From contig JAXDTJ010000018.1 in the NCBI GenBank assembly GCA_034090015.1, positions 41,740-105,739 on the forward strand: DNA of 64,000 nucleotides, given 5' to 3'. Numbering within the stretch: the stretch's first letter is position 1; the number at the start of each line of letters is the position of its first letter. The translations under genes and the position numbers were made by a program. Source of the stretch: Paludibacteraceae bacterium. Lineage in GTDB: Bacteria; Bacteroidota; Bacteroidia; Bacteroidales; Paludibacteraceae. Shown piece by piece: positions 2,165 to 63,734 of this stretch. Under the pieces are notes generated by a model that did not search any database, was not told where the DNA came from, and worked only from the letters and a program-made list of their open reading frames with translations.

Positions 2165-3074
2165 CCCCTCTCAACATTCAACGCTCAACGCTCAACCTTT
2201 GCTACCCTCTTTGTGTGGTTTAGGTACCGCCCTTATCACGCCTTTCCTACCCGATAAAACGGTAGATTTCAAAGCCCTTGGCACCCTGATAGAGCACCAG
2301 ATTGCAGCGGGAGTGGATTATATTGTGGTCTTCGGCACTACCTCCGAGATGGTTACGCTCAACGAGTTGGAGCGTATCACCGTGCGCGATTTTATTGTTC
2401 GCCGTGTGGCGGGGCGCGTGCCGTTGGTGCTCGGCATTGGCGGTAACTGCACAGAGCATGTCATCTGCGAGATAAAGCAGCAGGCACCCATCCTCACGCA
2501 ACATTTCCGCGCCATCCTCTCCGTCTGCCCTTACTACAACAAACCCAACCAGCAGGGCATGTTCCAACATTTCTGCGCCATCGCAGAAGCCTCGCCGCTG
2601 CCTATCATCTTATATAATGTGCCCGGGCGCACGGGCGTGAACCTGCTGCCGGAGACGGTGGCAAGGCTCTACAAAGCCATGCCGGAGAAGATAGTAGGCA
2701 TCAAGGAGGCAAGCGGGAAACTTGACCAGATAAAAAGCCTGCTGGAGATTATGCCCGAAGAGTTTATGGTGATTTCGGGCGATGATAAGTACGCTTGCGA
2801 ACTGATGGAGGCGGGTGCCAAAGGACTTATCTCCGTGGCAAGCAACGCCTTCCCCGAGGACTTCCGCACCATCGTATATGAGAAAGACGCGGCATTGGCT
2901 GCGCGATACAAGCAACTGGTTCACCTATTGTTTGCCGAAGGTAGCCCCGCAGGCATTAAATGTGTCCTGTCGGAGCAGGGTTTAGTCAGCAACATCCTCC
3001 GCCTCCCCTTAGTCCCCTGCACCCCCCTCCTCCAACAGGAAATCCATGAAGAACTGCTGGCAATTGGCATTTAG
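2157..3074 (+). CDS. dapA: 4-hydroxy-tetrahydrodipicolinate synthase
   Basis: Shows GLGTALITPF, YNVPGRTG and GIKEASG (Schiff-base Lys) motifs of the DapA/NAL family. The first ~18 codons are made of CTCAACG-type repeat words, so an in-frame TTG near 2211 is an alternative start. Confidence 0.9.
   Translation: MTNPSQHSTLNAQPLLPSLCGLGTALITPFLPDKTVDFKALGTLIEHQIAAGVDYIVVFGTTSEMVTLNELERITVRDFIVRRVAGRVPLVLGIGGNCTEHVICEIKQQAPILTQHFRAILSVCPYYNKPNQQGMFQHFCAIAEASPLPIILYNVPGRTGVNLLPETVARLYKAMPEKIVGIKEASGKLDQIKSLLEIMPEEFMVISGDDKYACELMEAGAKGLISVASNAFPEDFRTIVYEKDAALAARYKQLVHLLFAEGSPAGIKCVLSEQGLVSNILRLPLVPCTPLLQQEIHEELLAIGI
2168..2197. repeat. CTCAAC(G/A)-word tract inside the dapA 5' end
   Basis: CTCTCAACATTCAACGCTCAACGCTCAACC, related to the CTCAACT arrays at 62984 and 63646. 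Confidence 0.6.
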
Positions 3075-3107
3075 TATTTTTCACAATAATACTCAAAGTC
3101 GAATGAA

Positions 3108-3146
3108 TAAAAAAGAGTTAGGCCTATGGGCTTAACTCTTTTCTTT
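3108..3146. terminator. bidirectional hairpin between convergent dapA and fbp
   Basis: AAGAGTTAGGCC-TAT-GGGCTTAACTCTT flanked by an A-run and a T-run. The fbp stop codon lies in the stem. Confidence 0.55.
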
Positions 3147-5159
3147 GATGATGCCGGCTTGGTAGGCGGCGAGGAGGTGTTGGAGGTTAGTTATCTGCTG
3201 TTGGAGTTCTTTTCCGCGGTCGGTGTCGCGCACACGGATACGGTGGCGGCTGAAGTCCTCGAGCAGGGTGCGGTTGTGGATGTCGCTGCCGGATAGGATA
3301 GCCTGCTCGCGGCTCTCAAACGACTCATGCTCCACGAGTTGGATTCCGTGGCTGTTGTAGATAAGCGTGTAGCCCGCTATGCCCGTCTTCTCTTGGTAGG
3401 GCTTGCTGAATCCGCCGTCTATCACAAACCGCTTGCCCTCGGCGCGGATAGGGGTCTCGCCCTTGATGGTGCGCACGGGGATATGCCCATTGATGATACG
3501 CCCCGTCTCGGGGTCGAGCCCGAACTCGCGCAGTATCTGCTCGCATATATCGCGGCGGTTTGCCAGTTCGTAGTAGGCTCCTTTCTGCTCTTTCCACAGC
3601 GCTTCATCGTCAATGAAATAGCGTTCGAAAGTGGTCATCTTGTCTTTGTTGTAGAGCGGCGAGTGTGCTCCCTGCCAGAGGTAGAGCATATAGTCCAGCG
3701 CGTTGTCTTTCTCGGAGCCCGTACCGTAGTAGGCGGTGCGCACCACTTCGTCTATGCGCTCCATCAGCGCCCGTCCGCGCACCTGTTCGCCGCAGACATC
3801 CACCGTGGTGAACGACCCGTCGGCGTTCAGTGGGATGGCGGCATGGTAGAGCAGGAAGCCGTTGCGGACAAGGAAAAGCGAGCCATGCTGGTAGAGTCGC
3901 TTCAGGTCGCGCTGCATCTTCTCCGACTTGCGGAACGAGCGCGCCAGTTGCACCATCAGTTCCTCCTCCTCCGCGGAGAGCGCGTAGGGGTGCTTCGCAT
4001 TGATGGTAGGCAGGTTGCGGTCGGTGAGCGGGTAGGTGGCACCCTGTATGCGGATGGTGCCCGCGGCGAGGTCAATCTTATCCAGCAGCAAACGGTCGTC
4101 CATCTCCCACTCGGGATGGCGGAGGATGGTCTGTCCCTCCAACTTAAACTGTATGATAGCCATCGCCTTGTGCATCTTCGCCATGAGTTGTGCGGAGCGC
4201 GTCAGGCGCGGGTTGTTCTCGAAGTCTTTCGTCTGGAAGACGGTGCAAGGGTCGTTGCCGTAGGTCTCCATAGCGAAGTTCGCCAGCGGCAGGAGGTTGA
4301 TACCGTAGCCTTCCTCCAGTGTCTCGATGTTCGCGTAACGGATAGACACGCGGAGCACGGTGGCGATGAGGGCGAGGTTGCCCGCCATAGCGCCCATCCA
4401 CTCGATGTCGTGGTTGCCCCACTGGATGTCGTAGTCGCGCACCCACGAGAGTGTGTCCATAATTTGGCTCGCTCCCGGTCCGCGGTCGAAGATGTCGCCC
4501 ACGATATGCAGCGTGTCGATGGTCAGGCTGTGGATGAGATAGGAGATGGCGATTATGAGTTGCTCGGCGCAGCCCACCTCCACAATGGCGTCGATGATAG
4601 CGTTGTAGTAGGCGGTGCGGTCGTGCTCTATGCTCGACTCGTGAAGCAACTCGTCGATGACGTAGGCGTAGTCCTGCGGCAGCAGTTTGCGCACTTTCGA
4701 GCGGCTGTATTTGATGGTAACCGCTCGCGCTACGAGCACCACTTGGTGCAACCGCCTGCGATACCACTCGTCCATCGTGAACGTGCCCATGCCTTCGTCC
4801 AACTCTCTCCCTTGTAGGGAGGGTAGGGGAGCGTCCTCCTCCAAACTCCGGCGTACCAGTTCAATACGCTCCTCGGGGTAGTAGGTGAGGGCGCAGAGGG
4901 CGCGTTTCTCCGTCTCCGAGAGGGTAAGCCCGTAGATGTCGTCCACCTTGCGGCGGATAACGCCCGAAGCGTTCTTGATGATATGCACAAACGCACCGCT
5001 CTCGCCGTGCAGGTCGCTCACGATATGCTCCGTGCCTTTGGGCAGCGAGATGATGGCTTTCAGGTTGATTAGTTCGGTTACAACCGCCTTGCGCGTGGGA
5101 AACTTCTCGCTCAGCAGGCGCAGGTAACGCTCATCGTTTTTCAGTTCTTCCAAACTCAT
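3132..5159 (-). CDS. fbp: fructose-1,6-bisphosphatase class 3
   Basis: N-terminal LINLKAIISLPKGTEHIVSDLHGE, plus GDIFDRGP and WGNHD metallophosphoesterase motifs. The 675-aa size is typical of Fbp/YydE-type FBPase. Confidence 0.9.
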   Translation of the reverse strand: MSLEELKNDERYLRLLSEKFPTRKAVVTELINLKAIISLPKGTEHIVSDLHGESGAFVHIIKNASGVIRRKVDDIYGLTLSETEKRALCALTYYPEERIELVRRSLEEDAPLPSLQGRELDEGMGTFTMDEWYRRRLHQVVLVARAVTIKYSRSKVRKLLPQDYAYVIDELLHESSIEHDRTAYYNAIIDAIVEVGCAEQLIIAISYLIHSLTIDTLHIVGDIFDRGPGASQIMDTLSWVRDYDIQWGNHDIEWMGAMAGNLALIATVLRVSIRYANIETLEEGYGINLLPLANFAMETYGNDPCTVFQTKDFENNPRLTRSAQLMAKMHKAMAIIQFKLEGQTILRHPEWEMDDRLLLDKIDLAAGTIRIQGATYPLTDRNLPTINAKHPYALSAEEEELMVQLARSFRKSEKMQRDLKRLYQHGSLFLVRNGFLLYHAAIPLNADGSFTTVDVCGEQVRGRALMERIDEVVRTAYYGTGSEKDNALDYMLYLWQGAHSPLYNKDKMTTFERYFIDDEALWKEQKGAYYELANRRDICEQILREFGLDPETGRIINGHIPVRTIKGETPIRAEGKRFVIDGGFSKPYQEKTGIAGYTLIYNSHGIQLVEHESFESREQAILSGSDIHNRTLLEDFSRHRIRVRDTDRGKELQQQITNLQHLLAAYQAGIIKEKS
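4799..4837. repeat. GC-rich palindromic element copy inside fbp
   Basis: CCAACTCTCTCCCTTGTAGGGAGGGTAGGGGAGCGTCCT matches 38672-38710 with 3 mismatches. Confidence 0.8.
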
Positions 5160-5176
5160 AATGCAACAATTTTCCG

Positions 5177-5184
5177 CAAAGGTA
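5177..5184 (-). promoter_or_regulatory. Bacteroidota -7 box TACCTTTG for fbp
   Basis: The reverse complement of CAAAGGTA matches TAnnTTTG, 18 nt upstream of the fbp ATG. Confidence 0.45.
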
Positions 5185-62959: not shown

Positions 62960-62983
62960 ATCGGAGAAAAGGGCGCGGACTAT

Positions 62984-63017
62984 CTCAACACTCAACTCTC
63001 AACCCTCAACTCTAAAC
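62984..63017. repeat. CTCAACT 7-mer array upstream of trmH-family gene
   Basis: CTCAACACTCAACTCTCAACCCTCAACTCTAAAC. Confidence 0.85.
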
Positions 63018-63020
63018 TAC

Positions 63021-63620
63021 ATGCAGAAACTGACCATACAAGAGATGAATCGCCTATCTGCGGAGGCCTTCCGCGAGGCGGAGAAATTGCCGCTGGTGGT
63101 GGTGCTGGATAATGTCCGCAGCCAACATAATGTAGGTGCTGTGTTCCGTACAGCCGATGCGTTCTTGTTGGAGGGCTTGTACCTCTGCGGCATCACGCCG
63201 AAGCCCGACACGCTGAGTACCAACAACGACCTGCACAAGACGGCGCTCGGCGCAGAGCTGACAGTGGCGTGGCAGGCGTTTGCAGAGACGATGGAGGCGG
63301 TGAAGACACTGCAAGCGAGAGGCTATAAGGTCTATGCTGTAGAGCAGGCGCACCACTCCATCACCCTCGAGCAGGCTGCGCAAGAAATCACTGGGGACGC
63401 GGGCGTCTCGCCCGCGGTGGGGCTGTCCCTCCCCGTCTGCACTAACGGCATCGCCATCGTTCTCGGGCATGAGGTCTTCGGTGTGGCGCAGGAAGTGGTG
63501 GATGCTTGCGACGGCTGCATAGAGATTCCGCAGTATGGCACCAAACACTCGCTGAACGTCAGCGTAACAGCAGGCATCGTCATGTATGCTCTCGCCACCG
63601 CCATGCGGGGTTCATTATGA
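63021..63620 (+). CDS. TrmH/SpoU family RNA 2'-O-methyltransferase
   Basis: VVVLDNVRSQHNVGAVFRTADAF, VLGHEVFGV and IPQYGTKHSLNVSVTAGIVMY motifs. It carries a 16-codon repeat-derived insert. Confidence 0.85.
   Translation: MQKLTIQEMNRLSAEAFREAEKLPLVVVLDNVRSQHNVGAVFRTADAFLLEGLYLCGITPKPDTLSTNNDLHKTALGAELTVAWQAFAETMEAVKTLQARGYKVYAVEQAHHSITLEQAAQEITGDAGVSPAVGLSLPVCTNGIAIVLGHEVFGVAQEVVDACDGCIEIPQYGTKHSLNVSVTAGIVMYALATAMRGSL
63388..63435. repeat. GC-rich MITE-arm sequence in-frame in trmH-family gene
   Basis: CTGGGGACGCGGGCGTCTCGCCC (63391-63413) is identical to the reverse complement of 17768-17790. Confidence 0.8.
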
Positions 63621-63734
63621 ATTATGAATTATGAGTGCCACTGCTCTCTAAACTCTCAACTCTAAACTCTCAACTCTCAACTCTCAACTCTCAACTCTAA
63701 ACCCTCAACTCTCAACTCTCAACTCTCAACTCTT
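63614..63734. repeat. ATTATGA words (overlapping the trmH-family stop) followed by ~12 CTCAACT/CTAAACT 7-mers
   Basis: ATTATGAATTATGAATTATGAG, then a 63646-63734 heptamer array ending at the next ATG. Confidence 0.9.

Follow-up and report, generated by a model that had tools for sequence, protein, structure and literature searches.

Tandem-word foldbacks in the intergenic spacers of a Paludibacteraceae genome from the gut

The window analysed here, a 64-kb stretch of DNA (positions 41,740–105,739 of contig JAXDTJ010000018.1) from a Paludibacteraceae metagenome-assembled genome (MAG), carries mainly housekeeping genes, among which a polyamine cluster keeps the conserved order speB-nspC-speA-cansdh-GT2-401aa. 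Contigs matching the window derive from pig-gut samples, and the nspC product (35312–36553) is identical to MDY2942474.1. Pig-gut runs in which the strain is present include SRR5008238, SRR5008275, SRR21357801, SRR23814689, ERR10900027 and ERR1135203/208/212. Many spacers between the genes hold elements of one architecture built from many word sets: words of 7–16 nucleotides (nt), repeated in tandem, form two inverted arms around a short core. An initial annotation of the DNA had proposed this design, and it is borne out. The elements form dispersed families that are exchanged between spacers, and their arms stay complementary as the words change.

Word arrays and foldbacks in the spacers

After correction of gene starts, the window has 29 spacers of at least 25 nt, which sum to 5,254 nt (8.2% of the window) and are poorer in GC (37.3%) than the coding DNA (55.1%, the low end of the 55–60% estimated initially). 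Tandem arrays, called with TRF at period 6–16, at least 2.5 copies and a score of at least 34, number 26 in 19 of the 29 spacers, as compared to a mean of 0.57 and a maximum of 4 in 100 dinucleotide shuffles of each spacer. Their density is 4.95 per kb of spacer and 0.19 per kb of coding DNA, a 26-fold difference. The periods are mainly 7–11 nt, and at least 15 words are involved. An array together with a reverse-complement partner occurs in seven spacers by a stringent score, and in none of 100 shuffles; by inspection, about 12 spacers are two-armed. Eight hairpins fold with z scores of −3.5 to −6.9 relative to dinucleotide shuffles, and for seven of the eight none of 200 shuffles folds as well, so the complementarity of the arms is far better than in shuffled sequence.

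The words and positions given in the initial annotation were all found again by TRF, by an inverted-repeat finder and by folding of the spacers. The arrays are non-random, but its statement that almost every spacer is filled by a hairpin was too strong: arrays occupy 66% of the spacers, and two-armed hairpins roughly 25–40%. Many words are AT-rich, as described, but the GACCGC, ACACGAAG and CCCTCCC elements are rich in GC. The preference for spacers is likewise strong without being exclusive, with arrays lying in frame inside open reading frames (ORFs) at 30209–30279, 32681–32784 and 36215–36310.

The spacer sequences recur at 99.9–100% identity in independent Logan contigs that stem from four sequencing runs, and the elements are therefore not assembly artefacts. 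They do fragment short-read assemblies of this lineage: in same-strain short-read contigs, 8 of 12 ends fall inside elements (at 11644, 17768, 17800, 21879, 34073, 36248, 40035 and 41034), as expected of genome-wide repeats. The window has no match in Rfam 15 at the gathering score and no tRNA or tmRNA gene by ARAGORN. Two other kinds of repeat were set aside. A CRISPR-like origin is rejected because of the gene content and the lack of spacers between the words. Against integron attC sites stand the flanking genes, which serve housekeeping polyamine metabolism and keep a conserved order, and the lack of an integrase in the window; R and L boxes were not searched for.

Within the polyamine cluster, the speB operon 5′ leader (34074–34336) contains an ATTTACG array (34074–34105) and nested CCGTTAAT and CCATTAAAG foldbacks (34103–34336), with a z score of −6.8. 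The speB|nspC spacer holds a GACAATTT foldback with the loop ATGCGCCGCATGG (35223–35305; z = −5.7), the first word of which supplies the stop codon of speB, and the nspC|speA spacer holds a TGTAATTT foldback (36562–36648; z = −5.4). The speA|cansdh spacer is filled by a GC-rich palindromic element (CCCTCCCTTGTAGGGAGGG and related sequences; 38547–38710), which has the same niche and mobility as the word elements despite having no tandem words. A TTTGAAAA foldback lies in the cansdh|GT2 spacer (39969–40063; z = −6.4). The spacer between GT2 and the 401-aa gene contains a second GACAATTT foldback (41030–41127; z = −6.9), which ends 1 nt before the ATG at 41129 and is an inverted copy of the first (90% identity to 35222–35309 in reverse). 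The two hairpins share the loop ATGCGCCGCATGG in opposite orientation, as had been noticed initially.

Outside the cluster, an AATTAAG/AATTATG foldback (11584–11673; z = −6.5) sits between the genes for L32 (11684–11869, −) and a pseudouridine synthase (10297–11499, −); its arms (11584–11613 and 11642–11671) are 93% complementary and enclose a 28-nt loop. A foldback of longer words, ACATATAATTA and CGTATAATTAAC, occupies 14216–14354 (82% complementary; z = −3.5), and a second window copy of the ACATATAATTA family lies at 56660–56735, with 91% identity over 54 nt (56660–56713). This second copy is part of a divergent spacer (56336–56735) that also contains a one-armed ATTAAGA array (56336–56363), located 8 nt upstream of the start of the gene at 54979–56328 (−), and a GAATCACC array (56425–56448). 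A GGATAAAGG foldback at 58201–58310 (z = −4.9) is followed by a 25-mer repeated 2.8 times (58292–58360). Sequences homologous to 58201–58360 occur in the spacer between GT2 and the 401-aa gene of a sister-species locus (L171) and inside the giant ORF of the window, at 32862–32943.

The GACCGC family is represented by foldbacks at 17640–17865, 19528–19695 and 21822–22030. In the first, the arms are 47 nt long and 91% complementary, and a GC-rich palindrome (17654–17804) is nested in the core. The second, with the core GACTGATATAC..AATAAGTC, fills the spacer from the gene at 19087–19524 to the ATG at 19707. The third reaches from the stop codon of the gene at 21512–21829 to 5 nt before the ATG at 22036, and has 85% identity to a copy in the cansdh|GT2 spacer of the sister-species locus L172. 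Small GC palindromes such as ATGCGCCGCAT and GCCATTCGGC are present in several cores. We note that upstream of the first copy, after an AraC-family gene, the interval 17502–17575 contains a 23-nt palindrome (91% complementary) whose two arms, AATAAAAACATGGAAATCGTCAA and TTGACGTTTTCCATGTTTTTTTT, adjoin each other, and that a 21-mer, CCATGTTTTTTTTGATGATTC, present in two exact copies, overlaps this palindrome. Mechanical ORF calls were misled by the arrays, with starts running into repeats at 41081 (TTG) and 19661 (GTG) and a spurious antisense ORF (19096–19605, −); according to the genes called on public contigs, the real ones are at 19087–19524 (+), 19707 (+) and 41129 (+).

Exchange between spacers and growth within them

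Relatives of the window were recovered through exact-protein look-ups and comprise contigs 92–96% identical to it (L081, L082 and L165) and sister-species loci (L170–L175). Scans of genome and metagenome contigs gave no conspecific, the best matches having 79% and 83% amino-acid identity, and were used for breadth only. In these comparisons each word set is a dispersed family that occupies several spacers, lies in both orientations and is common to sister species, and copies from separate loci and separate species have a unique core in common. In the window, the GACCGC family comprises three complete two-armed copies and a single one-armed array, and further copies lie in L081, L171 and L172; the copy at 17640 was assigned by inspection as a fourth two-armed one and gives no BLAST match. 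The GACTGATATAC..AATCAGTC core is present in at least five loci. The ACACGAAG family has members in L170 (two copies), L171 and L172 as well as in the window, and the GGATAAAGG family, with two copies in the window, is also present in L171. The initial annotation had set its variable words against known classes with one conserved sequence per family. The distinction from REP/BIME, Correia, BOX and RPE elements is upheld, but every one of the present word sets likewise makes up a conserved family that has a core particular to it. Its count of 15 sets also shrinks somewhat, in that three of them, GACAATTT, TTTGAAAA and a TTTGTAAA variant that occurs in sister species, can be aligned as a single superfamily.

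The elements are exchanged between spacers as whole stop-to-start intervals, often to the neighboring spacer, and are found in frame in genes as well. The order of the polyamine genes is conserved across the lineages, but different families occupy the same spacers. The GC-rich element in the speA|cansdh spacer of the window lies in the nspC|speA spacer of L172–L175, with 95% identity over 85 nt (window versus L172). The TTTGAAAA element in the cansdh|GT2 spacer of the window is found one spacer upstream, in speA|cansdh, in L081 and L172. A GACCGC element takes its place downstream of cansdh in L081, L082, L171 and L172, so that this position is held by the GACCGC family in three lineages and by TTTGAAAA in the window. 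The content of the spacer between GT2 and the 401-aa gene differs between L081 and L172. The replaced stretch extends from the stop codon to a point about 8 nt short of the following ATG. Among the window, L081 and L170–L175, all 20 polyamine-cluster spacers compared are occupied, with at least 61 nt each, by different families. As a separate observation, the pair formed by GT2 and the 401-aa gene lies downstream of cansdh in the window (40072–42334) and in L172, and upstream of speB in L171 (1543–3862), and the breakpoints of this change in gene order coincide with element-bearing spacers.

Dispersed families of 80–230 nt with inverted arms, located between genes and variable among strains, invite comparison with MITEs (miniature transposable elements with inverted repeats), that is, deletion derivatives of insertion sequences whose terminal inverted repeats are bound by the transposase of the parent. 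Such an origin is, in our judgment, highly unlikely. No target-site duplications are evident, although no empty site was at hand for comparison; the ends coincide with stop and start codons, and whole spacers are replaced. Neither the window nor the loci contain an insertion sequence with matching ends, and the window has no transposase. In addition, the arms are internally repetitive and variable in length, and at least ten families resemble each other in design, not in sequence.

Homologous recombination between the lineages is active as well. The cansdh-like protein (38711–39964; carboxynorspermidine dehydrogenase-like) is 100% identical between the window and L081/L082, which have 95.6% nucleotide identity, whereas nspC is only 83–89% identical between lineages that share this identical protein. 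Between L081 and L172, the first 800 nt of the cansdh gene are nearly identical and are followed by 6–14 differences per 100 nt. This pattern is a mosaic of recombination between close species, and homologous recombination therefore also shuffles spacer alleles.

Within a spacer, whole words are gained and lost in situ, in the manner expected of replication slippage. The AAATCGT array at 12534 consists of 3.7 copies in the window, whereas in L165 it is 33 nt longer and has about 8, and the difference between two rumen contigs, L101 and L102, is a single AAATAGTC unit. In the foldback at 41030–41127, the right arm is 15 nt longer than in L081 and L082 and the left arm is unchanged. The expectation that changes in word number keep the arms symmetric thus failed in the only case at hand, and arms are not always symmetric.

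The pairing itself is nevertheless maintained as the word changes, by concerted evolution in which the same C-G to A-U change is made in each period of both arms. When the GACAATTT and TTTGAAAA copies are aligned as one superfamily, three periodic pairs are either C-G (three sequences) or A-U (three sequences): the C of GACAATTT or the A of GAAAATTT is matched by G or U, respectively, in the opposite arm. In this alignment 87.9% of the cells are paired, in comparison to 78.9 ± 2.5% after shuffling (reached by none of 500 shuffles) and 19–49% when the partners are slid, the base being six related sequences and effectively one change seen three times. In the hairpin at 11584, the arms show no difference in 60 positions from the 92%-identical L165, whereas the loop differs at 6 of 28 (Fisher p = 7e-4).

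One-armed arrays, breadth and transcription context

Most arrays of the window are one-armed, often in 5′ leaders; the further arrays listed here are all on the + strand. The AAATCGT array at 7797–7836 (5.6 copies) ends 3 nt before the ATG at 7840, and a second AAATCGT array (12534–12559, 3.7 copies) lies in the 5′ leader of a ROK kinase gene. A CTCAACG array (2170–2196, 3.9 copies) is located just upstream of the probable start of dapA, the DHDPS match beginning at residue 21 of a long ORF. A CTAGAAAAT array lies between two + strand genes (9027–9077), a ACGGCAAAAAG array at 21403–21447 (3.8 copies), and a TAGGTGATTCA array at 33889–33943 (5 copies), the reverse-complement word of which recurs at 56425–56448. 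Two arrays are built of GC-rich words: a ACACGAAG/CGAAG array at 23161–23259, whose family occupies other spacers of L170, L171 and L172, and a GACCGC-type 16-mer array at 57672–57730 (one-armed, 3.7 copies). Near the end of the window, a one-armed TCTCAAC array (62983–63018, 5.1 copies) ends at the ATG at 63021, and ATTATGA (3 copies) and CTCTCAA (12.6 copies) arrays at 63614–63733 run from the stop codon of the gene at 63021–63620, which the former overlaps, up to the ATG at 63735. A GC-rich palindrome ahead of the TCTCAAC array (about 62930–62960) recurs as a pair at 26897–26974 in the giant ORF.

This giant ORF (3356 aa, 23264–33334), for which Laminin_G_3 is the sole Pfam match, reads through the palindrome pair and through in-frame arrays at 30209–30279 (AATTAAG/AATTATG and GAGCACTCC words; peptide INYELRIKNYEHSEHSDNSEHSDYS), 32681–32784 and 33065–33100. 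The nspC gene contains another in-frame insert, a GC-rich palindromic element (36215–36310, +) homologous to 38566–38642. As DNA it folds no better than shuffles (z = +0.7), and it is assigned because of its homology to the spacer element, not by its fold. Inserts in nspC are genus-specific. The insert peptide LPEAT(L/P)LRVACGDPGKGGS follows VRGA in the NspC of the window and SQWERF in a sister-species protein (P0011), and the same element therefore lies at two sites of one gene.

Beyond the window and its relatives, the breadth set consists of 2.53 Mb of related Bacteroidales loci, mostly from Prevotellaceae and Bacteroidaceae MAGs of rumen and gut. It contains 503 arrays, with 225 of period 7, 80 of period 8 and 91 of period 9; 65% are intergenic or at a gene edge, although only about 10.6% of the DNA of the set is non-coding. 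Altogether 101 different 7/8-mer words were found, some of which recur across species (AATTATG in 14 loci). An inverted partner within 200 nt accompanies 109 of the 503 arrays (22%), and a direct partner 33. In 130 of 379 cases the array ends close to a plausible ATG, from 10 nt ahead of it to 19 nt past it, and the sense strand of such start-proximal arrays consists of A to 39% and of G to 12%. The distribution is sporadic, since for most of the named reference isolates in the set few arrays and no inverted pairs are seen. More distant relatives have spacers of 6–40 nt in the polyamine operon.

Two further observations come from this set. Another Bacteroidales metagenome species carries a larger foldback (L147 910–1085, 2033–2244 and 18698–18950; L151 18637–18775), with at least three copies in 21 kb, GAATTAA heptamer arms, an inner core AAAATATGACTTG...CATATTTTC and a loop that is itself built of GGCTAATAAG-type words; inside one copy, two contigs with an overall identity of 97.6% are set apart by several indels of 23–34 nt. 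In addition, three rumen relatives (L098, L115 and L117) have GC-rich palindromes of the type CTCCCCTCCTTGGGAGGGGTCGGGGGAGG in the orthologous spacer downstream of cansdh. These resemble the element at 38547–38710 and may belong to a wider REP-like family in the clade.

The abundance of one-armed arrays that abut start codons, A-rich and G-poor in the sense strand, is what would be expected of an in-situ mutational by-product, in which slippage generates the arrays, occasional inverted template switching, by fold-back priming on short palindromes of the core, adds the second arm, and convergence from A-rich pre-start sequences yields similar elements at different loci, with neither copying between sites nor function. 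Growth by single units in situ, the failure to find a mobilizing enzyme in the window or in 2.6 Mb of loci, and the small GC palindromes ATGCGCCGCAT and GCCATTCGGC in the cores agree with such an origin. However, convergence does not explain why unique, non-repetitive cores are common to different loci, as exemplified by the 85 nt at 95% identity between the speA|cansdh spacer of the window and the nspC|speA spacer of L172, by the GACTGATATAC..AATCAGTC core and by the loop shared by the inverted GACAATTT hairpins. The same element-derived peptide at two positions of nspC is likewise left unexplained, and we regard a pure by-product as doubtful.

The Bacteroidetes promoter motif (TTTG-N17-23-TAnnTTTG) has seven matches in the window, where 0.8 is expected, including 34030–34061 ahead of the speB cluster and 56501–56532 (−). 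Three one-armed arrays (12534, 34074 and 56336) are located between a motif of this kind and a start codon, and therefore in 5′ leaders. The motif at 34030–34061 is the sole one of the cluster from speB to the 401-aa gene, which is bracketed by U-tract terminators at 33788 and 42496. With one promoter and bracketing terminators, the five long hairpins of the cluster are probably intercistronic parts of one transcript. None of these five hairpins (35223–41127) contains a promoter motif, and an interpretation of the arrays as promoters was dropped. Downstream of the cluster, the spacer at 42335–42728 contains two copies of the palindrome AGTTTAGACGTTCGTCTAAACT and precedes a low-GC island (42729–54872; 45% GC, compared with 55% for the other genes) that encodes three BspA-type leucine-rich-repeat/InlB-B-repeat surface proteins of 1216, 1990 and 802 aa.

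Stable stem-loops after stop codons might be taken for intrinsic terminators or attenuators. The word hairpins can hardly be either, because they are AT-rich stems of 30–45 bp with no U-tract and their 3′ arms end 1–13 nt short of the start codon that follows. A terminator scan picks out none of the word hairpins, canonical terminators lie elsewhere (33788 and 42496, and, by inspection of folds, GC stems with U-tracts at about 10240 and 54913), and five hairpins stand within one apparent operon.

The position inside an apparent operon agrees with primarily selected RNA elements, intercistronic and 5′-leader stem-loops that would set the processing, stability or translation of the mRNA of each cistron and for which tandem words would be the easiest route to a stem. 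The occupation of all 20 compared polyamine-cluster spacers, though by different families, points in this direction, as do the compensatory change that maintains pairing and the conservation of the arms at 11584 while the loop diverges. An equal role has been proposed for the STRR hairpins of cyanobacteria and for REP/BIME (PMC2670836). However, family copies and one-armed arrays face either way with respect to the direction of transcription (GACAATTT at 35223 versus 41030; CGTAAAT at 7797 and 12534 versus 34074), and elements are also located within ORFs and, at 58201, in a region of divergent promoters. Distant relatives run the same operon with their 6–40 nt spacers, and one arm can expand alone. 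That selection on the RNA accounts for the elements thus seems rather unlikely to us.

Origin, precedents and significance

We favor, with a probability of roughly 55%, the interpretation that the elements are foldback minisatellite repeats, which grow by slippage, keep their arms complementary and are copied between spacers. Each element consists of a short, family-specific core placed between two inverted arrays of a family-specific word, mostly of 7–8 nt and up to 16 nt. The words multiply by slippage. Copying from site to site would use the hairpin form. Two routes for the latter can be envisaged: a single-strand DNA enzyme acting in trans, for which Bacteroidetes-type HUH Y1/RAYT transposases are the candidates, or ectopic gene conversion together with template switching, for which common words would be the seeds. 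The elements would be mainly selfish or neutral DNA that persists where selection tolerates it. Because they sit inside operons and 5′ leaders, they are predicted to be transcribed as long AU-rich stem-loops, which could serve as RNase III sites or as exonuclease barriers between cistrons.

Several observations weigh against this interpretation. Pfam annotation of 30 window proteins reveals no transposase, integrase or RAYT gene, and a six-frame regular-expression scan of 2.6 Mb of loci gives no ORF with the HUH and Y motifs of the TnpA_Y1 subclasses. Neither target-site duplications nor empty sites were seen, the spacers being replaced, not interrupted, and some apparent spacer swaps may reflect alleles imported by recombination, not new transposition. 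In the breadth set, roughly three quarters of the arrays have no inverted partner, and folding back is therefore not obligatory. The covariation amounts to that one repeated change, and the evidence from the host genome itself covers 64 kb.

Going further, the elements may be a class of unrecognized prokaryotic foldback mobile elements, whole spacer cassettes whose tandem-word arms evolve in concert and which would be copied into neighboring spacers and permissive coding positions by a hairpin-recognizing single-strand DNA enzyme. We consider this possible but improbable. The HUH Y1 subclasses 1.2, 2.4 and 2.6, which are common to or specific to Bacteroidetes and Cyanobacteria, would be the candidate enzymes; subclass 2.6 of TnpA_Y1 is Bacteroidetes-specific and has been described with 'atypical secondary structures' (PMC6006769).

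The initial annotation knew of no described class in Bacteroidota that combines variable words with a fixed architecture, but two precede the present elements. Cyanobacterial STRR (short tandemly repeated repetitive sequences) are tandem repeats with a 7-bp unit; folded into hairpins, they occupy intergenic positions such as that between hupS and hupL. They are also reported for nif and hox regions, differ strongly among close relatives yet remain structured, and are without known function (PMC2670836, which cites by title Jackman & Mulligan 1995 on STRR). LSSR (long simple sequence repeats; Mrazek et al. 2007), as summarized in PMC4679880, are dominated by heptamers and have units of 5–11 nt. 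TAACTGA-type heptamer arrays (MacGregor 2015) are enriched in intergenic DNA, often lie a few nt before a start codon, occur in Cyanobacteria and five Bacteroidetes, and are proposed to originate by polymerase slippage; one 'indirect repeat' set was noted among 170 in the Guaymas genome (PMC4679880).

The elements described here share with STRR the tandem unit of about 7 bp, the several words per genome, the hairpins between co-transcribed genes and the variability between relatives. Units of 5–11 nt, intergenic enrichment and copy-number polymorphism, traits of STRR and LSSR, are found here, as are the inverted arrays with hairpins of STRR. However, STRR are hosted by heterocystous cyanobacteria and have the words STRR1–3, whereas the present host is an anaerobic gut Bacteroidales with other words; to our knowledge, core-bearing dispersed families, spacer swaps, periodic compensatory changes in the arms and in-frame copies have no counterpart in STRR. 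LSSR and TAACTGA-type arrays are similar in the dominance of heptamers, the intergenic location and the ends near start codons, but are described as direct repeats, whereas 22% of the arrays here have an inverted partner within 200 nt and belong to cored, moving families.

Other palindromic systems are less similar. REP/REPIN-RAYT and BIME elements are also dispersed extragenic palindromes, with inverted doublets in long hairpins and several families per genome; they, too, lie between co-directional genes, sometimes in frame, and maintain pairing. A REP, however, is an imperfect palindrome of 20–40 nt with a GT[AG]G or CGTC foot, whereas the arms here are tandem words of 30–47 nt, mostly AT-rich, and the feet at 11584, 35223, 36562, 39969 and 41030, read directly, have no GTAG, GTGG or CGTC. 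Rickettsia palindromic elements (RPE) are similarly palindromic and occur in spacers and in frame within genes, but each of their families has a single consensus and lacks arms of tandem words, and their host lineage is unrelated. The foldback (FB) transposons of eukaryotes are of kilobase scale and have long inverted arms of tandem sub-repeats, and some copies encode a transposase. Arms of sub-repeats, variable arm length and a small or variable center are common to both, but FB elements are eukaryotic and far larger, and nothing suggests a common origin. The literature searched contains no description of such elements in Bacteroidales; the nearest report is the P. gingivalis 'BrickBuilt' MITE, which has a 23-bp minisatellite and a different design (PMC4596501). 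In sum, the design is already known from cyanobacterial STRR and heptamer LSSR, which by the initial annotation's own standard counts against its novelty, whereas the family structure, the mobility and the occurrence in Bacteroidales were not found in that literature.

Heptamer repeats with hairpins have been known in cyanobacteria since about 1990, and LSSR have been catalogued since 2007, but their origin, spread and function are unexplained. The present lineage offers a dense and population-rich system, with two thirds of the spacers occupied and many related metagenomic strains and sister species, in which old questions become testable: how the arrays originate, why the unit is 7–8 nt, how the arms stay complementary, and whether whole elements move and by which mover. 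In practical terms, the elements account for broken short-read assemblies, 5′-extended ORF predictions and low-complexity peptides in proteins, and they coincide with breakpoints of gene order. If they are transcribed, double-stranded RNA stems of 30–45 bp would stand between most cistrons and would bear on operon expression in an abundant clade of the livestock gut. If the mobile foldback interpretation is true, one mechanism would account for both the Bacteroidales elements and the 35-year-old puzzle of STRR.

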